This document shows, in pieces, positions 4,670-38,695 of a DNA stretch of 64,000 bases. Position numbers and translations under genes: made by a program. A model generated the notes under the pieces. That model was not told the DNA's origin and made no database searches. It saw only the letters and a program-made list of their open reading frames with translations. Position 1 is the stretch's first letter; every line of letters begins with the position of its first letter. Origin of the DNA: Vermamoeba vermiformis (lineage: Eukaryota). The stretch covers positions 124,001-188,000 of the forward strand of contig JBEWZL010000272.1 in assembly GCA_045837725.1 (NCBI GenBank), read 5' to 3'.

Positions 4670-6289
4670 ATGGCCAAAGAGGCTACTACCAGCGAAGAAG
4701 TACAGTACTTGATTGACTCAAGTTCAAACGAAGAGTTTGAAATCCTCGCTACTGATTTGGAAATTAGTTTGCATTACGCGACGCACCCTCCACTGGAAAA
4801 TGCCTTAAGATCCACTCGTTCACTGAAAACCCTAGATATTTTTTTTGAAAGCATGCCACCATGCTATGGAATTATTGATGCGTTGCTTAATAACGGATCC
4901 ATTCATACTTTTACGGCAACATTCGACGAAGAATCGTTTGACGGACATTTAACCAAATCTGGAACTATATTTGGGGCACTAGTATTAAATACCAAGACTA
5001 TTACCAGCTTGAAGATCCAACGCACATTTCGGATGCAGAAAAGTTACGAAGAATTTTGTACCGGCTTGGAAATGAACCAATCATTGACGAGCTTGAGTTT
5101 GAGCGATTGTTTTGTAACGGACGCGGCATTGAAATCTATTTCTAGTGCACTCAAGCACAACACTACATTGAAGTCGTTGGATCTGAGCGTTAACTCTTTC
5201 GAGATTGAAGGATGCAGATATTTGGGAGAGTTATTAAAGAGTAATACAGCATTGGATTATTTGAACTTGAGCAATTGCGTTGTTCCGTTAGAAGGCTGGA
5301 AAGAGTTTTTTGGCGGATTGAAAATGAACTCTTCTTTGACGGAACTAAACTTGGCACAGAATAAAATGAGCGATATTGAAGTCTGTCACTATATGAACGA
5401 TATGCTGAAGAGTAATAAGACACTAGTGAACATCGATTTGAGCGGAAACGGAATCGGATCTGATGGTCTGAATAATTTGTTTCGAGATATTGACTTCAGA
5501 GGCTCAGGTGGATTATTAACAAGCATCAACTTACGCAACACAAAATTAGATTCAAAATGCTGCGAAACACTGGCCAAGTATGTTTCAGTGAACGACAAAA
5601 TGACAGAACTGGAGCTGTCGTTCAACAATATCAGCGCTGAAGGATGCAAATGGCTCGGCACCATGCTGAAACACAACAAAGCACTCACCACGCTGAATAT
5701 GACGCACAACAAGATTGGATCAGAAGGAGCACAATGGCTCGCTGACGGACTGAGAGTGAACACTCGCTTGTGTTACGTTGTGCTGCAAGACTGTGCGATC
5801 AAATCAGAGGGCTGCACACACCTCGCTGCAGCACTTGCAGTCAATCCGTGCTTGATGCATGTCAATCTGAATGGCAACGACATTGGTGCGCAAGGATGTG
5901 CAGCACTCGTTGCAGCGATGCAAACGAACCAATCAGTGACAGAGCTGTCCATCACCAAAGACAAGAAGATCAGTGCTGCGTCGTTAGAGCAGCTGATTGA
6001 TGCGCAGAACAGGAACAAACGTCATCAACGAGCATTGATCTCGAATGTGATGACAACACTCGTCAACATGGCACGCAGAGCTGAAGACTTGGTGTCGCTG
6101 CTTCCATTGGAGATTTGGCTGCACGTGTTCAAGCACGTGGTGTGTGGCGGAGTGCCAGGCTTTGATCAGATTGCACTGGAGCTGTTCACCAATCAGATTG
6201 ATTGTCGTGACATTGCTTCGCTCGTCAAAATGAAAATTGTTCGCAAACGTGGCAAAAGTGTTCTCGCTAAGCCTTCCAACGATGATTAA
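4670..6289 (+). CDS. Intronless RNI-like leucine-rich repeat protein with a C-terminal F-box-like motif
   Basis: About 28-aa repeats of the type LKHNTTLKSLDLSVNSFEIEGCRYLGEL. LPLEIWLHVFKHV lies near the C-terminus. Single ORF; first ATG at 4670. Confidence 0.88.
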   Translation: MAKEATTSEEVQYLIDSSSNEEFEILATDLEISLHYATHPPLENALRSTRSLKTLDIFFESMPPCYGIIDALLNNGSIHTFTATFDEESFDGHLTKSGTIFGALVLNTKTITSLKIQRTFRMQKSYEEFCTGLEMNQSLTSLSLSDCFVTDAALKSISSALKHNTTLKSLDLSVNSFEIEGCRYLGELLKSNTALDYLNLSNCVVPLEGWKEFFGGLKMNSSLTELNLAQNKMSDIEVCHYMNDMLKSNKTLVNIDLSGNGIGSDGLNNLFRDIDFRGSGGLLTSINLRNTKLDSKCCETLAKYVSVNDKMTELELSFNNISAEGCKWLGTMLKHNKALTTLNMTHNKIGSEGAQWLADGLRVNTRLCYVVLQDCAIKSEGCTHLAAALAVNPCLMHVNLNGNDIGAQGCAALVAAMQTNQSVTELSITKDKKISAASLEQLIDAQNRNKRHQRALISNVMTTLVNMARRAEDLVSLLPLEIWLHVFKHVVCGGVPGFDQIALELFTNQIDCRDIASLVKMKIVRKRGKSVLAKPSNDD

Positions 6290-6356: not shown

Positions 6357-8843
6357 TTACAAGATCAAACTCACGATCAACAACGCTAACGAGATTAAAG
6401 GTCTTAATACAATTGACTCGCTAACTTTACCAGCTTCAGCAGGAGGTTGGCTCTTGGTGGGTCCATTGGAGCCTTTGACAGGTGCACTTGAGTGTGTTGG
6501 CTCAGATCCGGTAGGTTGGTTGGCGTCAGCAGGAGCGTTTGACTGATTTGGAGCGCTAGATTGAGTTGGTGTGCTGGACTGCGTCGGAGTGTTGGATTGA
6601 GTTGGAGTGTTAGACTGAGTAGGTGCATTAGTGCCAGGGACATTAGCACTGCCTGGAGCGTTGGGGCTCGAAGGAGCACCGGGACTGGTACTGCCGGAGG
6701 GTGAATTGGTGGAACTCGGGGCTTGTTGAGAAGGACTGTTTTGATTCGGCGAAGGCGATGGTGTGTCAGGGACGGGAGGAACAATCGTTGCGTTGGCAAT
6801 TTCGTAGATTCCGATGCGACCATCGGCCCACAATGCGTGAATAAACAGGCCTGACACATCAACGTAGACTGCTGCCACACTCTCGGAAAGTTCCAAGATG
6901 TATTGCTGAGGAGGCGATAAACTGAGTTGAATGACAGTGATTGACGTAGGTTCTAGCACGGCAACAACTCCACTACGCGCGGACATGTCCAAAATGTTAG
7001 TGAAATCTTGTGTCACCGAAATGTCCGCTGAGATGCTGTAGATGTTCAAGGTGTTGCCGACAGTGAATACAGCGACATCTGAGAGGAGTTCAAAGTGCGT
7101 GTAGTCGACGGGCACGTCTCGTGTGAAGTCACGTGTCAAGCCTGTCAAATTATGGCCAGTCAAAGAGTAGAGGGTAATGTCGTCACAAACAACGATGCTC
7201 GTGTCGCTGTCCAATGGGTAGAGACTTTGAATGGTGCCTTGGAAGTGGTCAATGCCATAGACATGAGTATCAGCCACGAACAAAAAGTTATCACCGCACA
7301 CTGCGATCTGACGCGGTTGATACACATTGATGTCCGTTGTATCGATCGAGTCTCCAGTGATAGAAATGCATCGAACGAGACCTCCTGCCAATGCGCAGTA
7401 ATAGGAGCTGCCTACAACAAAATCGACGTCGATTGCTCTCTTTTGTGAAACGAGATCCAAGGCCAAAGTCTTGCAGATCGGATCCGCTGGACAGGTCGAT
7501 GTAGCCTCTGCAGTTCCAGAGATTTGATATGCGCCACCCAAACCATTGGCATAATGTTCAATAGCATGATGATCGAACGCGTCAGGTGATTGGTCAATGA
7601 AGTACAAGTCGTCGGATGAAACTTGAGTGATACCTCCGTTGGCAATATGAAAGACTGCGCCAGGAATGTTGAACAAAATGTTGTCAGAGCGAACAGATGC
7701 GTACAATTCGAAGAAATTGTTGCAAGACGCGCCTGAAGACAAACCTAAGCGGAGACTGGACAGAATTTCAGGAAAACCTTCGTTGTTGCACTGTTGAACT
7801 GCATCGCGGGCAGACCAAATGCTCAGACGTGGAACAATATCGGATTCATAGACGTAGGAACTGAAGTTGGGGAAGTCGACGGTGGATGTAGCAACACGTG
7901 GCGTTCCAAAACCAAAGCCTTGGACATTAGGAACGACGTCCATTGAAGAGATTAGTGAGAATGGAAGCAACAGCAGCACCACTTGAATGGCCAGTGATGA
8001 ACAGCGATGAAAATCTGGAGGGTAGATCTTCCATGCCGTAGACTTGCATGATCTGGTTGAAGATTCTAACAGCACGCCAGTAGTAACCTGAGTGGACGTA
8101 GCCGTTATTCCAATTACGTAGCGCTAGAACGAGTATCAGTGAGCCAATCCAAAGGATTATCATTTCCCCGAAGCACAATGACAATCGCATCCAAACACAG
8201 ATCTTCGACGAGCACCCAGTCTTGAGTCACGGAGTTTTGTTGGACAGCTAGGACTACGCTACCATCAATAGTAGAATCTGACAGCGTCACAGCACGATTA
8301 TAAGTCTGGGTAGTGTAGGCAGCCATGGCATACATCGACATCCGCAGCGGAACATTGTCAGATTGGCACTCGAATTGTGGGCAAGTGAAAGAAGTACAGT
8401 CGAGAAGAAAGAGCTGTAGGAAGGCCAACTCCGGTGCACGTATTGTCGGGGTACTGGAACATATAAACTTCCGCACTTCTGCATCTGAATCTAACGAAAG
8501 GTGTGGGGTCTGCGGAGAACATCAGGCAAGCTGAAGGCGTGAAGTAGAATGTAGTGCTAGAAGTAGGATCGCACTGGCCTTGGGAGTCTTTAGACAGCTG
8601 TTCGAGGACCAACTCGTTGATCGCTGCCGCAGGTACATCCGTCTCGCAGTGGCCTTCAAGTGAAGTACCAGCGCCATAAACAAGCGCGTTACTCGTGGTA
8701 CAGGTAATGTTAGAAGAGCATGTTGACGAAACGATCGTGAAAACAACGTCTCCACTGCAAGTTCCATCGTTGTAGATTCGGGTCACTTGCTGCTGAGCGT
8801 GGCAAGCAACTAAGTGCAATACAAACAGTATTAGTATGCGCAT
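6357..8843 (-). CDS. Secreted, probably GPI-anchored class-3 lipase-fold protein with a Cys-rich N-terminus and Ser/Thr/Pro stalk; three +1 frameshifts (possible pseudogene)
   Basis: Signal peptide MRILILFVLHLVACHA. Lipase motifs lie in successive frames: IVIVLRGNDNPLDWLTD, then VHSGY...ITGHSSGAAVA, then GFGTPRV...DIVPRL. Hydrophobic C-terminus. Confidence 0.8.
6540..6632 (-). repeat. Imperfect 18-nt coding tandem repeat (PTQSNT-like, about 5 units) in the stalk
   Basis: Translation APTQSNTPTQSNTPTQSSTPTQSSAPNQSN. Confidence 0.85.
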
Positions 8844-12762: not shown

Positions 12763-15700
12763 TTACATTTGGTTGATGAGCTATGAAAAGAGTCAGTTAG
12801 ACGAGTTCAAAAGTGAAAATTAAACGAGAGTCAAGTATGAAAGTGACGTACTTCGCGGGCCCAGACGGCAAGTTCTCGTGTTTGAGCTTGTTGTGAACCA
12901 GCAGCAGTTTTCAGGACGTAAGTAACTTGGTCAGAAGTCAACAAAGGCTTAATCTTCTTGCCGAGACCTTGAGCCAAATCACTGCAGATCCGCCAGTTAG
13001 TAATCACGTAGTGGGAGTATACAATAGGCGTAATATAACGTAATAACGCAAATAATAGTACTCACCCGATGAGACCGACGGCGCCTTGAGTAACTTCACG
13101 GGTTCGCATGCTGTCTTGCCAAACGATGGAGATCAACTTGATGATGCCCGGAACGAATTCGGCCATCAAACCGACCTTGTCGCTCTCGCGCAGACCTTGG
13201 ATAATACCAGTGTAGGCCTCGAAGATACCTTCACGCAGACCGTTGATGTAGTGGATCAAGTCATCGTCTTCGCATTGGTCCAATCGCTCGCTCATAGCAA
13301 TTTCACTAGCGCGTTGCAACATGGTAAGAACAGGGCCCAAGTACTTGTCGAAGAGGCCACCCAAAGCGTTGGCAAGTTCACCAAAGGTTGAGAGAATGGT
13401 TTGTCGGACCATGCGTTCCAAAGAGGGGTTGACAATGGCTTCCAACATCAAGTGCACCATCATGTCAGTGAACTCGAAGATCTTAGGGCCAATAGCACGA
13501 GCAATATCACCGACGACACCGACGGCAGCATCGCAAACCTAAAGTGCACAAGTTAGAAAATTAAATCGGAAGTGAGTTCAATGGCGGTCAAACGTACTCT
13601 GTAATCTTGAATGTTACGCAAAGCAACGTTCAAAACTTGAGAAACAGCGCTCATGTAGTTGTAGAAGTCAGGACCGAGGGCTAATAAAAGGAGGTAAGCA
13701 AACGGACCCATGCGAATACTTTTTGACTCGATCAGATCTTACCAGTAGCCATAGCACCAACGCCCAAAATAGCTTCTTCGGACAGTTGTTCATTAATACC
13801 GCCCTTAGGATTGGCAAAGACGCGCATGTAAGCGGTCATAATATTGTTGGCAAAAGGAGCAATCTTGTGTTCGAACTTTTGAGTGATGACCATCAATGTG
13901 CTGCACAAGAGACCCTTGACTTCGTTTTGAGCAGCTTGTTCGTTTTGATCTTGAGCAGTTTGCAAAGTAGCTTCCAATTGTTGCAAGAACATAGGAATAA
14001 ATTGCTCAATGTTGGGATAGTTCTTCTCGCTAGCAGCGGTGATGATTGAGTTGACTGTCTCGTAGACTGACAAGCGCAAATTGATGTCACCAACGTTATC
14101 GGCCTTGTTGGCGGTAGTCAAGAGAGCGTTGATGAAGTTTGTGAAGTAAGGAGTGAAGGGGCTGTTGTCAGGATCCTCTTCGAAAGCGGTAGCAAGCTTC
14201 AAAATACCCTGCAGGAACGTCCATTAGTAAGCTAAAAAAGAAGCTGCTAGCAATGCGCAATACTTACGAAGCAAACGTGCTTAACGACGCGAGGGTCGTC
14301 GTTGAGGGCCTCACCCAAAGCCTTGACGAGGGCGTCCATGTGTGAACCAATGCATTGGTGGTGCATGTGGCAAATACGAGCTAAACAATAGCGTAAGAAC
14401 ATGTAATAAAACAGTAGATCCGGATCGACTTACACAAAGTCCAGGCAGTGGTGTCACGGACTTCAAGGCTGGCGTCCTTGAGAGTGATAAGCATGAAAGG
14501 AATAGTGTTGGGAATGACAGTGCGGATGTAAGTCATAGGACCCTCCATGATAGAACCGAAGGCGAAGAGAGCGGCTTCCTTGAACTTCCAGTCGTTGCTG
14601 TGAATGTTGTTTTGAATGAAAGGCATGACGTGAGGAACGATCTCGTCTTCGACAGTGTTAGCGCACAAGTTCAAGCAAGAACCAGCAGCCATAGCCAAGT
14701 TCCAGTCTTCAGGATCAGCGTCGTCCTCTTGTTTAGTCATGGCTTCAGTCAAGACGGGCACGAGGAACTTGACAGCGGCCTTAATGTAGCCCTTGCACTC
14801 GCGAGGAGGAGGCATGTTGTATGAGGCGTGCTCGGCAATTTCTTCCATAATAAGCATTTCTTCGTCACAAAGTGTGCTCCAGAACTCAACGGCTTGTTGG
14901 GCAACGTCTTCTTTGTCAGTCTTAATAGTGTTCAAAGTCATCTGCGTGCAACAATTAGAAGACCAGTCTACGAGCTAGTTCACATCAATGATACTTACGT
15001 TGAAGATGCGGACCATGTAGTCGGGCAAGAACTCGTAGTAGCGCGTAGCAATACGAACTAAAATTTCATAAGCAGCAATGCGAACTCTGTCATCAGGGAA
15101 GACACAGCAGTCAAGAACGACGTTCATAATGTGATCGCGCTTAGCTTGGTTGCCAAAGTGACGCTTGACAAAGCCCAAGCCGTAGAACAAGGCACTGCAA
15201 GCAGCCAACTTGACGTTTCTGTCCTTCTCTTCAGGGATCATACCGTGAACAACAGCAGCCAAAATATTGTCAGCGACGTTGTCTGCCAAGCTGTTCGCGC
15301 CCTTATATAAAATAAATCAATAATTGAACGAAAAGCCACGTGTCACAGGGACCCATCCGGATGCCCATCCAAAAAAATTCTCAAAAATTAACGGCGTTAA
15401 AAATACGTACCACCATGTGTTCGCTGATATCTCCGAGAGCCAATACTGTGGACTGTCTAATATGAGGATTTTCATTGCGCATATTGCTCAACAAAGCTTC
15501 AATAAGACCGGGCCACATGTTCTTGGGCAACTCAATAATGGCGACTTTAGAGACAACCTAATAATGCCATTGTTAGGTTGAATTTCGGTTCATGAAAAAC
15601 ATTAGCAAATCTGCTATTTAAAAAAGCGCGCCAAAATGAATTACGGCGATTCCTGTGTTGGGAGAGTATTAAAAATAGAGTACTTTACCTGAGCAGCGAA

Positions 15701-16508
15701 GGTACGAACTTGCTCCACGGGAGAAGCCAATGTGTTGAAGGCCTACAAAGAAAAAAGTTAGATTTTGCTGCACACTACCACGTAGACGCTCAGAACGCGT
15801 CCAAAAAAATATAGTCAATAGCTCTTTCGATGATATTGATAATATTCGAATAATAGGCACGAGATCTTGATGCTTTCAAAAAAAAATTAATTCGTAAAAT
15901 ATAATTTTACTCACAATTTGCTTAATGTTCATTCTAGTTTCTTGGTCAAGAGCCAACCATTTGTTGTGTAAATCTTTTTTGCGCTCAAGGTCCTAACAAA
16001 TAAAAGAAAATTAGAGAATAGATCAGATTGCCCACAAAGCTTCGCAAACTACGAGCACTAAAATTAATAGGCTACTAATTTTATTCAACCTACCTTTGCA
16101 TCAAGTGTGTTCTTTAAAAGAATGCCGGCAAGCACTCGAGACTCTCCTTGCTTTTGCTCATTCGCAAGCTCATAGCACAGAGCGAGAAGGAAAAGGGCCT
16201 AATATAAATATTAGCTATTATTATCGGTACACTACAATTTAAATAATTTAAAACGATTAATTATACAAGCCAAAGTCAATACAAGGAATATTTCAAATCT
16301 AGGATTAACTGAGTCCATTTCGTACCATGTTGTCATCACCCCATTTCTTCAATTGAGCCGTTGCAGGGTCACGAACATTGGCCACTAAGAGATATTATTA
16401 GTTGAAATTGTCAAAAAAGAAAGAGATTTGCAACTTACAGTGAGATTGGGCTGCCAACAAAGTGTTGGTCAGGTTATTTTTCAAGTCTTCGATCAACTGT
16501 TGAGACAT
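12763..16508 (-). CDS. KPNB1: Importin subunit beta-1 (karyopherin beta)
   Basis: SRVLAGILLKNTL, VAQQAVEFWSTLCDEE, EDWNLAMAAGSCL, DWKFKEAALFAFGSIMEGP, VRDTTAWTL, LREGIFEAYTGIIQGL. Many GT-AG introns. Confidence 0.96.
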
Positions 16509-31357: not shown

Positions 31358-31607
31358 TACAAGCGAATACAAAATATGTTTAAAACCCGCGAATAACTTA
31401 AATTAATTTTTTGTGTGATTAAAATAAATGCGAATATTCATTAGACGACAATTAATTGGATTGATGTGACACGAACTTGACTGCCATCCTTGGAATTCTT
31501 GCTTTTTTCTGTCGACCCTGTCCACAAAACGCGTTTTGCGGTTTGTCGAATGTCAAAATTATTTTAGTTAAAAAAGGTGAAATACAACAATAAAAGACCA
31601 AAATACA

Positions 31608-33319
31608 ATGGGTAAGTAGATAACATTCGTAGGAAAATTAACATTAATAACGAAATAATTTTTTAGTTCATTATTAAAATCCAATACGAAGCCAGCCATT
31701 TAATTATTTTTATATTGAATTCAACAATAGGAAAAATAGAAATATTATCAGTGTATTTATTGCTCAATATTCTATTCGCATAGACGTTCAAATCGGAGTT
31801 CTTCCGGCTGACGTGCTGGATGCGATTGTACAATATTCAGAACCTCAATCAGCAGTGGCTATATATCTGTCATGCAAATACTGGCACAACAGGTTCAAAA
31901 ATATTTTCGCAGCAGATCGCGTTGTGGTCAGCGCAAGAATTAAAGATTTCGACACGAACTTCAGATATATATTCGAGCTATATAGAGGTCGAGGTAATTG
32001 ATCTAGGCATTAATTATATATTTTAAGCTAATACGTGTCAGTTAAGGAGTACAAGTTGGATCATGACCAAAATGATCTGGATGGCTACGCTTGCATTCCG
32101 GTTAATAGAGTGGCCATTGGATATTTCAACACGGTCTCGGATACGACAAAATTTATCAAGCAAATCAATGATATTCTGATTAATAACAAAGATGTCGCTG
32201 ACATTGAAGCAAATCCGTTTTTTGAATGTTCAGTGGAATTAGGATCGGCAGCTAATAACAAAGTATATTATACAATTGATCATGGAGAACAAGGCATACT
32301 AATAGGTGTATATAAAGGCACGCAAATCCTCGAACTGATTAAACAAGCTGGTTTTGTTACGAGATCTGTCGTTGACAATGCAAGCCTGAAGATTAAAACA
32401 ATGCACCGCAATAGTGATAGAAAACTTATATATAAGAGCAAGGTACATATTAATCCTCAAGGAGATGTATTTATGAAGATTAACAGCAATGTCGGTTGCG
32501 AAGAAATAACACTTAGAACTTCATCGGAGTTGTACGATCAAATGATGGAGATTATTAAATACAGCAAGCATAAGACAAATATATTAAAGTCAAAACAGAT
32601 TGAGAAAGATGATATTCAATCATTATTCTGCGCCAAACTGAAGTGCGATGAAACTCGTAAGTATTAAGATTTTGTACGGTTAATGGCTTGGTTTTAATTT
32701 AACAATTCCTAGAATACATCGTGCAGGAATATAACGTATATGACAGTCCGAGTGTCATTACCAATGGATACAAAACACATGCAACTAAAAGAATTGTCAA
32801 GTTGTTACTGACGCACTTGTACCCAGCCAAACTCGATGAAAATTCATCCGTACGATCAGAAAGAGAACTGCCTAAGCCACAAGCATTAATGTACGTTATT
32901 TTAACATTATCGTTAGTTTAATCTAAGTTTATTTCCCTAGATACGATTTAGCCCGGCGAGTACCGTATCCAGTGAGCATTGATCGATTTCGGCGAATTGA
33001 CAATCTTAGTGTGTCTATAAATCACGGCGGCGAAACTTCGTACATTGATTTAGGACTGCGACGGCATTTAAATATCCCGCGCAAAGAATTGATCGATTTG
33101 CTGCAACTGCTAGAGGCACAACCAATACAGAGACGGAGGAACAGAATTCACTATCGAATGGACAAGCATATCAAAGGCGAAGGATCGATCATAATGCAAG
33201 TTTATATTGACACGTTCTACAACCATACGTATCTGCTTCCAAAATTAGAGAAAGTTATTGTAGATCGGCTGTGGACCTTGTTAAGGACTAGCGGTTATTT
33301 AGACTTCCTTAACAAATAA
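31608..33319 (+). CDS. F-box protein with an unrecognised C-terminal region
   Basis: The ATG-G micro-exon splices to DVQIGVLPADVLDAIVQYSEPQSAVAIYLSCKYWH (F-box pattern). Further exons correspond to the ORFs at 32035, 32721 and 32972. Confidence 0.65.
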
Positions 33320-33407
33320 ATGAAAAGATTTCTTAATAAAAATCGATATTGTCTTACCGATATTACATTAAAAGTATTCATTTATGTAAAAATTAATTAT
33401 CTACATC

Positions 33408-34679
33408 TTAAATAATTTCCTCTCGTTCAATCTGGGTTAAACCTAAGATGCGATTATTCAGCTCGTCAAAAGCTTCGTTGAACTCAACCTCGGCAACATT
33501 ATTTCGTTCCAATAATTGTTGTAAGGTGTTTTGTGTTTTCAATTGATTTATATTTGATTGCCATAATTGGAAAATACTCTTAATTGCGGTATTATGAAGC
33601 GCTGCGCAGACGGATCTCTCGTCCAAATGAAATAACTTGGAGTTGCGATAGTTGTGATCATCAAACCCTACTTTAATTCCGGTCGGAACCCACGATACTA
33701 ATCGAATTTTTTCCGCTTCTTGCAGTCGCTGAACACTTTGGCTGATCTCATCTCGAAGCAGTCCTCGAGTAAACATGTGAATTCTCATGTAATATCCGGC
33801 GTTAAAGTCTACATCGCATAATAGTGAACTATTTTGCAAAGCATTTCCTATTAAAGACTGCGTTGACGGATCTACTTCGCAAGGCATGCCGATTTCATCA
33901 GTTACGTAGCTCGGTACCGTGAAGCTGATTCCAGGGTACGCATCAGAGTGAGAAATCTGGGAAAGATATATTCCGTTTTCATTTGAGAATCTATCGGCTG
34001 CTGTAAAGCTTGACAGAGTTTTCGCAACGAATCTGTTCAGATCTACTTTGCTGTGTTGATTATTCGAGTGCACTTGTCGTTGAATAGCACTGTCTTGATA
34101 AATAATCCTTGATGGATATTCTTGTGCAAATAAATCAAGCGAAAGAGTTGAATTGATAATTTGTTCGTCATTTGAAGAGCGATCTGCCAGCACAACGATG
34201 TCATGAATGTACTTTCTGCCGAGCCCAATATTCTCCAGTTCAATATCATGTACAATAATGCTGATAGCCTCTGTCGAGTCTCGAATAAACATGCATTGGG
34301 TGAGAGAGTCACACCTTTCAATTTGTTTTCGGATGGCAGACTCGATCTGGCTTAGTTCTTCTTCGCGTAGCTTGCCATTATCTCTATTATTAAACAACAC
34401 ATAGTTTTTCTCAGGGTCATCGTAATCAGAATATTGCAAGAAGGGAGTATCTGTCAAGTTGTTGTTTGATCCTGCATCTATGATAACGGATCGGGGTATA
34501 ATTTTGTTTTCATTTTGTTCGTGAAAAAATGCCGCCCAGTTATTGTCCTTTTGGTTTATAGACTCCTTCTGTGTAAAAGAATGATTTTCCAGCCAGTGCT
34601 CTGCTGAAATCTGGCGCCAAAAGCTCGATCCAATATTAGCGCCTCTATTCCCCAGTTGAATAACAATAGTTTCTCGCAT
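33408..34679 (-). CDS. Highly divergent, intronless alpha-like tubulin lacking the GGGTGSG signature
   Basis: 423-aa ORF collinear with tubulin: MRETIVIQLG, FFHE...PRSVIID, IRKQIERCDSL, LNRFVAKTLSSFTAADRF, IRLVSWVPTGIKVG, HNTAIKSIF, EVEFNEA. Confidence 0.9.
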   Translation of the reverse strand: MRETIVIQLGNRGANIGSSFWRQISAEHWLENHSFTQKESINQKDNNWAAFFHEQNENKIIPRSVIIDAGSNNNLTDTPFLQYSDYDDPEKNYVLFNNRDNGKLREEELSQIESAIRKQIERCDSLTQCMFIRDSTEAISIIVHDIELENIGLGRKYIHDIVVLADRSSNDEQIINSTLSLDLFAQEYPSRIIYQDSAIQRQVHSNNQHSKVDLNRFVAKTLSSFTAADRFSNENGIYLSQISHSDAYPGISFTVPSYVTDEIGMPCEVDPSTQSLIGNALQNSSLLCDVDFNAGYYMRIHMFTRGLLRDEISQSVQRLQEAEKIRLVSWVPTGIKVGFDDHNYRNSKLFHLDERSVCAALHNTAIKSIFQLWQSNINQLKTQNTLQQLLERNNVAEVEFNEAFDELNNRILGLTQIEREEII

Positions 34680-35040
34680 TATGCCTACGAAAGATTATTT
34701 AAATTGATTTTTTCCATTTTTTATTTTAAAAATAATGGTTGAATTCAGATGTCGCTTCAAACCTTACCGTTCGAGAGTAATATTTTCTATCTTTATTATT
34801 TTGTTGAAGGGCAATTTTCCCTTGCGATGGTCTTTGATAAATTGTACAATGACCGAAGGTCTTTAATGTCTGGCCACTGTATAAAGAATAACTGTCTCCT
34901 CGACACTAAGACTAATACTAATGTGGTCGTGTTTATGTTGACGCACAGAACAGTCAAAAACGATTAAATTGGATTTTAAAATCGGAAACTTTTTCGAATT
35001 GCAAAACCGATAACAGATACACATTGTTAATTTTCATCTC

Positions 35041-37099
35041 TTAGTTCAATGGCTTAATAGTGCAAGGACACGGCGAGTCAGGCTTGGTAACGAATTGTTG
35101 AACGCTGCCACTCAAACCGTGCTTGCGTGCATCAATTTCAAAGTCGCGGATCAGCATAGCAGTGGCAAACTTCATTTCAGTCATGGCGAATGTCTTTCCG
35201 ACACAGATGCGCAAACTATACACGACGATGATTAGTCAAAGGTGTAAGGTACTAAGATTAAGGAAATGAATAGCGAAGACTTTAACAAAACTGGACGTGA
35301 GAGTCTTGGTCTTTGTCTTACCCTCCGCCGAATGGAACGTACGAGTGCATGGGACGTTTTTCCTCTTCTTCTTTGGTAAATCGCTCGGGGTTGAACTTCT
35401 TCGGCTCTTTCCAAAATCGTTCGTCCATGTGCAAGTACTCAGTGGAGCAGACGAGGGCAGCACCCTTGGGCACCATATATTGACCGACTTTGAGGTCTTC
35501 AGTGAGCTCACGACGCATGAGATACGAGACAGTGCACATGCGCATGGATTCTTTGATGACCATCTCCAAGTACGGAATGTTGTTGAGTTCAGCCATTGTA
35601 GGAACTTTATTGCCGATGGCCTTCTTGATTTCATCACGGAGCTGTCGGAAACATCCTGTCAGTAATGCCAATGACATATATTATAGGGAGTACTAGTATT
35701 TCGGGCCCTCGTAGTACGTACTTTTTGTTGTTCAGCAAGGTGGTTTCCGAGCAAGTTGAACATGAACGTCAACGAGATGGACGTTGTTTCGTTACCAGCG
35801 ATCCTAAGATACGTCTTTAGTCATCTTTCTATCATATGATGATTGATTATTGCTTACATGAAGGTCATGCACTCGCTGTACAAGTCATCGACTGAGATCT
35901 GACCTTCAGAGTTTTCTTGAGAGGCACGCAACAACAAGTCCAACAAATCAAGGCGGTCATCATTGAGAGTACCAGCGGCCTTTTGTTTCTTATAGTTCTC
36001 GATCCTAGTCTCGATCAGCTTGGTGATGGTATTCTTGACGAGTTCACGGGCAGCGAAGAGTTTCTTGTTTTCAGGCAAAAACGGCAACCAATCCCAATAA
36101 GGAGTTGAAGAGTAGATAATTCTCTTAACGGCCGTATCCAAGATGTAGTCCATCGCCTTAAAAAGCTCCTTGTTGGAATCACCTTCGATCGCTGGACAAA
36201 AAAATTAGAAAATGGTGGCTGGGCTCAATATGACTTACATTTAAAATCAAAGCCGAAAGCAGCGTGTCCAATGGCATCAACAGTAAGTTTCTGGAATTCA
36301 GGCCAAGTTTGGATCTCGGCGTGACCGTTTTTGGCGAGATCCTTCCAGCGCTGAGCAAGTCGCTGAACTTTTTCTACCATAATCCAATCGGTCTTCTGCA
36401 AGTTGGTGTTTTGGAAAACTAAACAAAAGAAGTAAGCTTTTGCGGCCTAAATTTGGATCTGATCCGCTAGTTCCGGTAATGATGAAGATTTTCAGGGAAT
36501 TGATGTGGAAAAAGGTGGTTACTTACTCGGTGAAATCAAGCGACGGTGGAATCTCCATCTATCTCCGTAGCCCATGGAGAAGATGCCGTTGACTAGAAAA
36601 AATGGTCAGATCGAAGCAATTTGTACTAAGCCAAGACAATCTTACTTTGAGTGGTATCGATGAAAGGCTCGGACATGGCAGTGCCTCGTTCGTTAGAGAC
36701 TTGGAACATCAGCTTTATGTGCTCGGGGTTGCTAATGACGACGTCTGGAATGAAGCCGTAGAACGCAAACTGCGATCAGATCAGCAACAAAAATAAAGAA
36801 ATAAGAGCTAACTTACAACTTCACCGTATTTAGGAATGAATTGGTCAAAGCCTCGGCCGTAGCTACCCTTCTTGGCCAGTACATCTGGAATGTTTCCAAA
36901 GTACGCGTTTGGCTTGGGGCCAGGAAGGTGGCCAATCAATCTCTTCATACGATCCTATAGCATATAATAAGATAATTATTTGCTTGCAAGCATTGTTATT
37001 TTAAGGTTCGGTGCATACGATCTTGGCCTTCTGAGCATTAAACCAATTCAGGACGATAACAAGTACTACTAAACCGAAGGTAATCCAAATGCTGAACAT
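35041..37099 (-). CDS. Cytochrome P450 (membrane-anchored)
   Basis: N-terminal TM and PGPKP, I-helix TFMIAGNETT, ExxR (KESMR), FNPERF, and heme motif PFGGGLRICVG across an intron. Confidence 0.95.
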
Positions 37100-37561
37100 T
37101 TTGAGAATTGTGTGCTTGATTTAGAGTGTTGAGCTACAACAGAAAAGATAAAGCTCTATCGTTTCATTTCGCTGAAAACTAAAAATAGAAATTTTGTCTT
37201 CGGATTATCATCAAACTCCTGATACCTACAAAAGGGGTAAAGTATATACGGCACCGATGGACTTAAAAAGAAAATTGCCACCTCGTTTAGAAGATCCTGG
37301 ACCAGCGTTGAGATCTACACAGATCTTGGAAGACCTCCGATCTTTCTATCGTCGATCTGGATGCATTATAAGCCTGTTTTGTCCAGTTCACGTGATTCGT
37401 TGGCTGCAGTATTCATGCGGTTAGTACATTGGCACGTGCTTTTTTAGTACGACGAAAAGCAAAGAAATTGATTTGACCAAAACTTGCCTAGTTGTTAAAC
37501 GCATTGTATACTATAAGAGCATTAGTGTTTATAAACACTCCACAGTACCATCAAATAGCAG

Positions 37562-38695
37562 ATGAGCGAAAAGAAAGTGTCCTCGATCGTTGCTCGTGCA
37601 ATGAATTCATTGCAATGGCGACGTGGAAACGGCAGCGATGATACACATTCCATTGAAATTAAGGGCAATAAGCTTGCTCTGCTTCAAAAACCAGGTTAGT
37701 CTTCGAAGACCGGAAATTAAATATTTAAATAATCGTTATTTTAAATTGTTATTATATTTAAGGCTTATCACGTATTTGTTACCTTTTTGATTATCTAAAT
37801 ATATGATAATTTAATTTTTAACGAATATTATAGAGATACAAAAGCAAGATCTGGGTACTGGAGGCACAGTTTGGAACTGCGCGATCGTTATTTCAAAATA
37901 TTTCGAAAAATTATCGGAAAAAGAGAATTGGTCCGATAAAAATGTGTTGGAAGGTTAGTATCTCGAGAACAAAATCAAATCCGTCAAAGATTCTGTTATC
38001 AACCAAAAATTCCGCTTATGCAGCTTACTTATTCTTTCATATTTAGTTGGTAGTGGTACTGGTATAGTCGGCATTACTACAGCCTTGACAATGAAGCCAA
38101 AAAAATTGCTTGTAACGGACATTGAACAACAGCTCGAACTCATGACTACCAATGTAAATAACGTGCGCGAGCAAATTAACGATAAATCAGTAAGTATCAC
38201 TCTATATAAAACATATAATATCATAGATTGATATAAAGAATGCATAGGACTTGGATTGTATTTCGATTCAAGAATTCGATTGGAGCAAAGACGAAGTCAA
38301 GCTGGATCCGCCTCCACCATATGACATTGTTGTGGCTAGTGATTGCGTCTGGCCGAAGATCAACAACGAATTATTGATAAATGCATTGTTAAAAGTTACT
38401 GGTAAGTCTGCAATCGAGGCAAAAAGTCGATCTCGCTCAGGTGGGATCCGTTACCCCTAATAACAATAGAAGTGATTCTTATAGCATTTAACTGACGCAT
38501 AAGCTTGTTTTAGATGAGAAGACGTTGATTATTCAAGCATATGAATATCGTGGTGAAAGTTGCCGAACGACGTACTTCAAAAAGGCCGAACAGTTCTTTA
38601 CATTCGAACGCATTCCCGAAGAAGAATTGCACCAACAGTTTATTGTAGATGATATTGAATTATATCGCGTGCGTCGCAAGCCTGAAGCAAAGTAA
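37562..38695 (+). CDS. METTL21/Methyltransf_16-family protein-lysine methyltransferase
   Basis: GTGGTVWNCA, VLEVGSGTGIVGI, VTD, FDW and DIVVASDCVW motifs. Confidence 0.9.

Follow-up and report, generated by a model that had tools for sequence, protein, structure and literature searches.

A tubulin-fold protein with a rebuilt and conserved nucleotide pocket in Vermamoeba-like amoebae, probably a lineage-restricted alpha-tubulin paralogue

The guanosine triphosphate (GTP) held at the non-exchangeable site (N-site) of alpha-tubulin is a structural cofactor deemed indispensable for the fold and for the alpha-beta dimer. Passages of Findeisen et al. (2014, PMC4202323) describe very divergent beta-tubulins of Paramecium that lack the P-loop, which the authors regard as structural and not polymerising. 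The BLT and ALT proteins of Tetrahymena (beta-like and alpha-like tubulins; PMC3382179) are divergent isotypes specific to their lineage. Their GTP pocket and interfaces carry substitutions, and they have no tail modification motifs; the BLTs retain GGGTGSG, are 56–65% identical to canonical beta-tubulin and enter specific microtubule arrays. Excerpts of PMC10731463 describe septin pseudoGTPases, in which a subunit of a nucleotide-dependent cytoskeletal family has lost binding and yet is retained in evolution. Here we report a divergent tubulin gene at 33408..34679, on the reverse strand of a 64,000-nucleotide stretch of the Vermamoeba vermiformis genome (contig JBEWZL010000272.1; hereafter the window). 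Our analysis revealed that the gene is real and intact, that it is under purifying selection, and that its product (P0001) has a tubulin fold. Sequence comparison indicates that it is probably a lineage-restricted alpha-tubulin paralogue, known to date from Vermamoeba-like amoebae only (Amoebozoa, Echinamoebida), which has kept the fold and become a pseudo-GTPase.

Like the Paramecium proteins, the amoeba protein is a eukaryotic paralogue without the phosphate-binding signature, but the former, as described in the passages cited above, are beta-derived and ciliate and are related at the superfamily level only (PMC4202323). The amoeba family is far more divergent than the Tetrahymena isotypes as portrayed in PMC3382179, and it is without their signature. 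The septin pseudoGTPases share with it a lost site at a subunit interface; they belong to an unrelated superfamily with the P-loop GTPase fold, and the likeness drawn from those excerpts is an analogy only (PMC10731463). Misato/DML1 is another eukaryotic relative of tubulin whose nucleotide motifs are degenerate, but P0001 has a plain Tubulin plus Tubulin_C architecture; Misat_Tub_SegII scored 18.5 bits (E 0.0025), below its threshold of 26.5, and Tubulin_3 was not listed at E up to 1. The viral and bacterial tubulins PhuZ and TubZ were also rejected, the best TM-score (template modelling score) in BFVD being 0.53 at 10–14% identity, with no relative in IMG/VR or prokaryote genomes. A literature search found no description of the family, and in the Echinamoeba genome paper the word “tubulin” matched only inside “Tubulinea”. 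Membership of an already described tubulin class, which the initial annotation of the window had named as a result that would speak against its reading, was not found. The family is in no described class, yet it is not without precedent, as the P-loop-less beta-tubulins in the cited passages of PMC4202323 illustrate.

The coding sequence is an unbroken frame from ATG to stop, encoding 423 amino acids. An in-frame stop lies 5 codons 5' of the ATG (stop-to-stop frame 33411–34694), and the MRE start is common to all orthologues. A frame of 423 codons is far beyond chance, since at about 5% stops per codon in 40% GC DNA its probability is, by our own arithmetic, about 1e-10. The product matched Pfam Tubulin (PF00091; 4.6e-11, 43.8 bits against a cut-off of 33, with the match confined to residues 4–132) and Tubulin_C (PF03953; 7.1e-12, 46 bits against 26.6); all 3 orthologues matched the former, and 2 of 3 reached the cut-off of the latter. 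In a phmmer search of all PDB chains, the best match was yeast alpha-tubulin Tub1 (4ffb_A, E 6.4e-21), collinear over residues 1–406 against 1–425, and alpha chains made up most of the best 60 matches listed. These results bear out the initial annotation, which had read the frame as uninterrupted and collinear with alpha-tubulin from MRE to helix H12. The AlphaFold2 (AF2) model, built on a 92-row alignment, was confident (predicted local distance difference test, pLDDT, 88.8; predicted template modelling score, pTM, 0.91) and contained the complete tubulin order of secondary structure. Foldseek returned tubulin chains as the best PDB matches, with solved alpha chains among the top ones (TM-score 0.84–0.87, identity 18–21%).

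The protein shares with canonical alpha-tubulin (4ffb_A; alignment row P0077) the motifs LNR[FL]VA..LS..T...RF and W-x-P-T-G-x-K-V-G and a long S9–S10 loop, and the structural segments PRSVIID, LNRFVAKTLSSFTAADRF and VSWVPTGIKVG persist, as had been noted. It differs in its low identity (about 20% in the MAFFT alignment), in the loss of GGGTGSG and of most N-site contacts, in an unconserved Glu254 column, in a T5 loop shorter by 2 residues, in the absence of about 8 residues after T3, and in fast evolution. Its C-terminus, IEREEII, ends 7 residues past H12, and the acidic tail (E-hook) of the alpha-tubulin class is missing, in agreement with the earlier remark that there is no long acidic tail. 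The gene is intronless amid neighbours that tblastn splits into pieces, a contrast that the initial annotation had rightly drawn: importin-beta comprises 9 pieces with P0175 as query and 8 with P0300, the lysine methyltransferase 4, and the cytochrome P450 at least 2.

The loops that hold the nucleotide in alpha-tubulin are replaced (all positions on the reverse strand, from the alignment). T1 (residues 10–17, 34629..34652) reads GNRGANIG against GQAGVQMG in P0077, a row whose canonical alpha label, like the beta label of P0104 and the gamma label of P0131, was assigned through the PDB; G10, R12, G13, N15 and G17 are family-invariant, and all three T1 glycines are thus retained. At the T4 position (residues 132–139, 34263..34286), IRDSTEAI stands instead of GGGTGSG, and I-R-D-S-x-E is invariant. 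The T5 position (residues 165–176, 34152..34187) reads ADRSSNDEQIIN, with A165, D166, R167, S169, D171, Q173 and N176 invariant. S6/T6 (residues 194–198, 34086..34100) reads YQDSA where the canonical sequence is VDNEA, and Y, Q, D and A are invariant. At the start of H7 (residues 211–216, 34032..34049), which reads KVDLNR, Lys211 occupies the column of the guanine-stacking Tyr224, and Asn215, equivalent to alpha Asn228, is kept. The family consensus is I-R-D-S-[T/A]-E for T4, A-D-R-x-S-x-D-x-Q-x-x-N for T5 and Y-Q-D-x-A for T6, with Tyr224 changed to Lys. The T7/H8 position (residues 232–243, 33951..33986) reads SNENGIYLSQIS and has 2 of 12 residues invariant.

The initial loop readings GNRG, RDSTEAIS, DEQIIN, QDSA and GIYLSQI were each found in the sequence. 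The accompanying claim that the catalytic Glu is lost holds for the window protein, which has Gln241 in the alpha-Glu254 column, but not across the family, as the three orthologues carry E, D and D there. We take the GTP-contact positions of alpha-tubulin to be Q11, A12, Q15, D69, E71, A99, A100, N101, S140, G143, G144, T145, G146, V177, S178, T179, E183, N206, Y224 and N228; of 19 such contacts, the window protein keeps D69 (as D68), N228 (as N215) and, in comparison with P0077, a Ser at the S178 column. The glycine-rich T4 signature of tubulins, [SAG]GGTG[SA]G, is absent from P0001. The T4 window contains 0–1 glycines in 10/10 family rows (0 in P0001) and at least 2 in 82/82 other tubulin rows, a comparison set rich in orphan tubulins in which strict GGGTG[SA]G is present in only 71 of 148 matches.

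In the alignment, the replaced pocket loops are the best-conserved segments of the protein; they are “conserved but different”, not decayed. Invariant positions number 26/39 in T1, T4, T5, T6 and the H7 start against 112/384 elsewhere (Fisher p 7e-6, for loop windows picked after the alignment was seen). The N-terminus is also well conserved (23/28), whereas T3 plus T7 (3/23), H12 (2/27), H10 (2/17) and H4 (0/18) drift. Within the P0002 cluster of relatives, whose members are 95–99% identical, 0/24 variable sites fall inside the T1, T4, T5, T6 and H7-start loops. The 24 sites concentrate in the T2–T3 region, in T7 and in the C-terminal helices; the cluster (P0002, P0005–P0011) falls into two haplotype groups with about 95% identity between them, and P0008 resembles a mosaic of both.

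Relatives were found in only three clusters among 5.8 billion clustered proteins, at 48–57% identity: P0002 (431 amino acids, 55%, 8 members, the longest of its metagenome contigs being 293,712 bp), P0003 (434 amino acids, 56%) and P0004 (432 amino acids, 48%), the DNA of the last being a metagenome locus, L001. A filter-free phmmer search of 1.84 billion representatives returned the same clusters and then a gap to 1e-21 at 25% identity, and no relative was found on prokaryote genome contigs. The P0004 gene in L001 is also intronless with its frame intact, and the frame is open over its full length in four deeply diverged lineages and in 7 more cluster members (P0006 having 395 amino acids). 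The synteny marker shared with L001 is a Methyltransf_16 (METTL21-like) lysine methyltransferase, identified by tblastn and Pfam, which in the window lies at 37559..38409 on the forward strand in 4 exon pieces, head-to-head with the tubulin-like gene. In L001, it lies at 90–1026 on the reverse strand, again head-to-head and 444 bp upstream; because the distance is merely 444 bp, the two genes could share a bidirectional promoter there. The earlier suggestion of a retrogene is unlikely to apply to a recent event, as L001, which differs from the window by a dS (synonymous divergence) of about 1.4 in the neighbouring methyltransferase gene, has the gene in the same position.

The window and L001, the only two DNA sequences available for the rates, gave a dN (nonsynonymous divergence) of 0.057, a dS of 1.39 and an omega (dN/dS) of 0.04 for the methyltransferase (202 codons), and a dN of 0.40, a dS of 2.7 (pS 0.73, saturated) and an omega of 0.15 for the tubulin-like gene by the Nei–Gojobori method (NG86). 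When scaled by the methyltransferase dS of 1.39, omega of the tubulin-like gene is 0.29. Its dN is about 7 times that of this neighbour, and its identity of 48–57% contrasts with about 90% for the methyltransferase and mostly 83–96% for pieces of importin-beta. The tubulin-like protein is clearly under purifying selection despite this rate, and the dN/dS comparison that had been proposed thus gave values not near 1. The earlier view that selection acts on the fold and not on GTPase function is supported in its first part by these values, by the three clusters and by the confident AF2 model; selection is not confined to the fold, however, because it is the replaced pocket loops that show the strongest conservation.

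The phylogeny that had been called for, carried out with the available tubulins, placed the family on the alpha side with moderate support. In the careful tree (LG+C20 mixture model, 38 rows, with delta, epsilon and zeta references left out), the four family members grouped together at 100/100 behind a stem of 2.1 substitutions per site, and a split supported at 91/95.3 set the family together with the alpha-like rows (23 rows in all) apart from beta, gamma and others (15). The family falls outside the 100/100 canonical alpha clade; the gamma rows (including P0131) form a 100/100 clade without it, and the approximately unbiased (AU) test rejects its grouping with beta (p 0.025). A first tree of 86 matches had left the family among other long branches, without resolution. 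The family carries W-x-P-T-G-[IF]-K-V-G, LNR[FL]VA and the long S9–S10 loop, which in P0001 is as long as in the alpha rows P0156 and P0034 and exceeds that of the beta and gamma rows P0154 and P0131. We assume that the WCPTGFKVG-type motif and the long S9–S10 loop are alpha-specific.

Outside the family, P0157 (452 amino acids, 1868-bp contig) is the sole other match with similar loops (T4 ADSTEG, T1 GNFGTN); its overall identity is 19%, the other family motifs are absent, and either a distant sister lineage or convergence may explain the likeness. Its N-terminal extension begins MGCGGSC, presumably resembling an acylation motif. The nearest non-family matches (P0012–P0159) are mostly orphan long-branch protist tubulins, such as an Anaeramoeba flamelloides hypothetical protein and a Toxoplasma “tubulin/FtsZ family” protein. 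Strict GGGTG[SA]G is missing in 77/148 non-family matches, which, at the level of sequence motifs, suggests that degenerate tubulins are numerous and have been little described.

The favoured explanation has two steps. In the first, the residues that hold the non-exchangeable GTP in alpha-tubulin are lost (the T4 glycine signature, Gln11 and Gln15 of T1, T5, Asn206 of T6, and Tyr224), and the replacements, which are largely charged and conserved (Arg12, Arg133, Asp134, Glu137, Asp166, Arg167, Asp171, Gln173, Asp196 and Lys211), would fill or bridge the remodelled pocket with their side chains. No nucleotide would then be needed, and we consider such a nucleotide-independent protein the probable state. 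In the second step, the conserved pocket face (the plus-end, N-site face) would bind the minus-end face of beta-tubulin, as alpha-tubulin does. The resulting dimer would be unable to propagate a protofilament because the protein's own minus-end face (T7, H8, H10) and its outer surface (H11–H12, with no E-hook) drift; its role would be that of a cap, a sequestering partner or a regulator and not that of a lattice subunit. This non-propagating partnership with beta-tubulin is put forward tentatively, as appreciably less likely than loss of the nucleotide. It draws weak support from the co-folding with beta-tubulin suggested by the initial annotation. A co-fold of P0001 with a beta stand-in (P0104, residues 1–430) and GTP scored 0.60 against 0.01 for the best control, with at least 80% of contacts shared between runs and a pLDDT of at least 76 for the partner; the mark applied is reached by 51/78 solved complexes and 2/108 mismatches. 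The candidate roles named by the initial annotation were a cap, a sequestering factor, a chaperone client and a decoy, and this weak co-fold signal is the one result that bears on them.

Several points weigh against this explanation. Scores of 0.60 or below were obtained by just 5/78 solved complexes and by all 4 passing mismatches. The pass may also reflect memory, that is, show likeness alone, because alpha-beta dimers have been solved many times, and the beta-tubulin came from another organism. T3 has 1/11 invariant positions though it lies on the face proposed for beta binding, and the loop windows in the conservation test were chosen with the alignment in view. The alpha-side placement is moderate, not firm, because in a quick tree of the same 38 rows the family belonged to none of the alpha, beta and gamma groups and lay outside the starred alpha group; the placement also stands on the 2.1 stem in a tree to which the delta, epsilon and zeta references did not contribute. 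A non-canonical ligand may still be bound, because G10, G13 and G17 of T1 are retained together with Asp68, Asn176 and Asn215. Finally, three RNA-seq runs under the same species label gave 0, 1 and 4 reads on 32000–37000 from about 13 million records each, and thus no support for expression; this is no test of expression, because the neighbouring P450 is equally without reads. The label may cover another strain or organism, or both genes may have been silent at the time.

The retained pocket residues would also suit an isotype that still binds and polymerises, in which Arg12, Arg133, Arg167, Lys211 and the T1 glycines would hold GTP or a different phosphorylated ligand and which would build a special subset of microtubules or filaments, as in ciliates. 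G10, G13, G17, D68, N176 and N215 are invariant, strong conservation of the pocket loops is what a working ligand site would lead one to expect, and in Tetrahymena divergent isotypes assemble even though their pockets are altered, according to the sections of PMC3382179 on these proteins. However, those BLTs keep the signature at 56–65% identity to canonical beta, as the same sections state, while P0001 stands at about 20–25% (PMC3382179). Here the entire T4 phosphate loop is swapped for a segment with two invariant acidic residues and 0–1 glycines where 82/82 others have at least 2, T5 is shortened, Tyr224 and Asn206 are gone, and the surfaces for the polymer and for microtubule-associated proteins (T3, T7, H10, H12) drift. 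We therefore regard a polymerising isotype as unlikely. An origin outside alpha, either as a very divergent delta-, epsilon- or zeta-tubulin or as an old separate class surviving in one lineage, is a shade less likely again. The long stem (2.1 substitutions per site), the quick trees that set the family beside other orphans outside alpha, beta and gamma, and the omission of delta, epsilon and zeta from the favoured tree would all allow it, and the nearest protein-language-model neighbours in the Atlas, “tubulin delta” and archaeal FtsZ clusters at 0.91–0.92, are a lead only. Against this stand the 91/95.3 support for joining the alpha-like rows in the mixture-model tree, the alpha chains among the best sequence and fold matches, the alpha-type motifs with the long S9–S10 loop, and the failure to find the family in other eukaryotes among the protein sets searched; in the tabulated part of Findeisen et al. 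(PMC4202323), moreover, 0 of 46 amoebozoan tubulins are delta, epsilon or zeta.

The same rapid evolution can be read as the decay of a dead or dying alpha-tubulin retrocopy whose frame is open by chance. The gene is intronless among split genes, its identity is 48–57% where importin-beta is mostly 83–96% and the methyltransferase about 90% identical, its GC content at third codon positions (GC3) is low (0.39), and the RNA-seq reads are 0, 1 and 4 (with none on the P450 either). Full-length frames in four deeply diverged lineages and 7 cluster members, an omega of 0.15–0.29 and not near 1, strongly uneven conservation (from 0/18 in H4 to 23/28 at the N-terminus) and a confident AF2 fold contradict decay, and this reading is close to refuted. 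Acquisition from, or exchange with, a giant virus of Vermamoeba (a “virolog”) is just as improbable. The gene is intronless and fast-evolving, and the host group is known for giant-virus gene traffic in the relevant passages of PMC9116030, but among 2.9 million IMG/VR contigs 40 pattern matches yielded 0 confirmed, the BFVD folds were only phage PhuZ/TubZ/FtsZ-like (TM-score at most 0.53, 10–14% identity), the gene position is syntenic between genomes, and GC3 equals that of the adjacent host methyltransferase. The virally mediated copy proposed in the initial annotation thus found no backing in IMG/VR or among BFVD folds. A fast-evolving tubulin mimic, serving as a decoy for effectors or viral factors aimed at host tubulin, would be compatible with the favoured explanation, and we rate it about as doubtful as an origin outside alpha. 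Its dN is 7 times the neighbour's while frame and core are kept, surface helices, T3 and T7 vary even inside the 95–99% identical P0002 cluster, and the host is a reservoir of intracellular bacteria and giant viruses, as stated in portions of PMC9116030 and PMC7238060; an omega of 0.15–0.29, from two DNA sequences with saturated dS, nevertheless requires no arms race.

In what we favour as a lineage-restricted pseudo-GTPase, nearly all N-site GTP contacts have been lost, yet fold and frame are kept across deeply diverged amoebae, and the rebuilt pocket is kept most strongly of all. Should the protein prove to be nucleotide-free, it would offer a natural experiment on the purpose of the N-site nucleotide, a scaffold on which to study how tubulin folds and dimerises without GTP, and a candidate microtubule regulator in acentriolar amoebae. 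If a nucleotide is bound in a new way, the interest is equal. Amoebozoa would join ciliates among the groups with independent loss of the phosphate loop in tubulin paralogues. One may speculate further, with a small chance of being right in every part, that this is a naturally nucleotide-free alpha-tubulin whose charged network (Arg12, Arg133, Asp134, Glu137, Asp166, Arg167, Asp171, Lys211) replaces the structural N-site GTP and offers a phosphate-like acidic surface to beta-tubulin. Such a GTP-independent surrogate would form dead-end dimers or minus-end caps in a centriole-less amoeba, its outer surfaces being shaped by conflict with intracellular bacteria and giant viruses.

The surroundings of the gene differ between the window and L001. 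On the upstream side, 34680–37558 spans 2.9 kb, against 444 bp in L001, and includes cytochrome P450 exons (35321..36204, reverse strand; found by tblastn) between the methyltransferase and the tubulin-like gene, which are not in that interval of L001. On the downstream side, 31445–33407 holds an extra stretch of about 1.9 kb with orphan open reading frames (ORFs) at 32035–32667 (210 amino acids) and 32972–33319 (115 amino acids), for which no match was found in Pfam, IMG/VR or the Atlas (the 210-amino-acid ORF being negative in IMG/VR and the Atlas). The importin-beta-1 gene that served as a rate yardstick (12849..16508, reverse strand, multi-exon, from protein matches) has exons 70–100% identical to EP00029_Vermamoeba_vermiformis_P008052, mostly 83–96%. 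One exon is 93% identical to the representative of the 90% cluster that includes this EukProt protein, all further matches lying at 57% or lower and other amoebozoans (Nematostelium, Gocevia, Vermistella) at 46–50%. These values assign the window to a Vermamoeba-like amoeba (Amoebozoa, Tubulinea, Echinamoebida) that is close to the EukProt strain without being identical to it. An importin-beta exon of a Vermamoeba cluster and P0002 both reach 293,712-bp contigs, which suggests that the linkage is perhaps kept there too.

Elsewhere, a long intronless ORF at 6357–7943 (reverse strand, 528 amino acids) has no Pfam match and adjoins, on the opposite strand, another long intronless ORF at 4670–6289 (forward strand) that encodes a 539-amino-acid RNI-type leucine-rich repeat (LRR) protein. 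The window has short introns and contains genes for importin-beta, squalene epoxidase, P450, an ABCG transporter, LRR and ankyrin proteins and kinases. Codon composition is uneven across 25 kb of it, with GC3 values of 0.39 for the tubulin-like gene, 0.395 for the methyltransferase, 0.48 for ABCG, 0.56 for importin-beta and 0.61 for P450.

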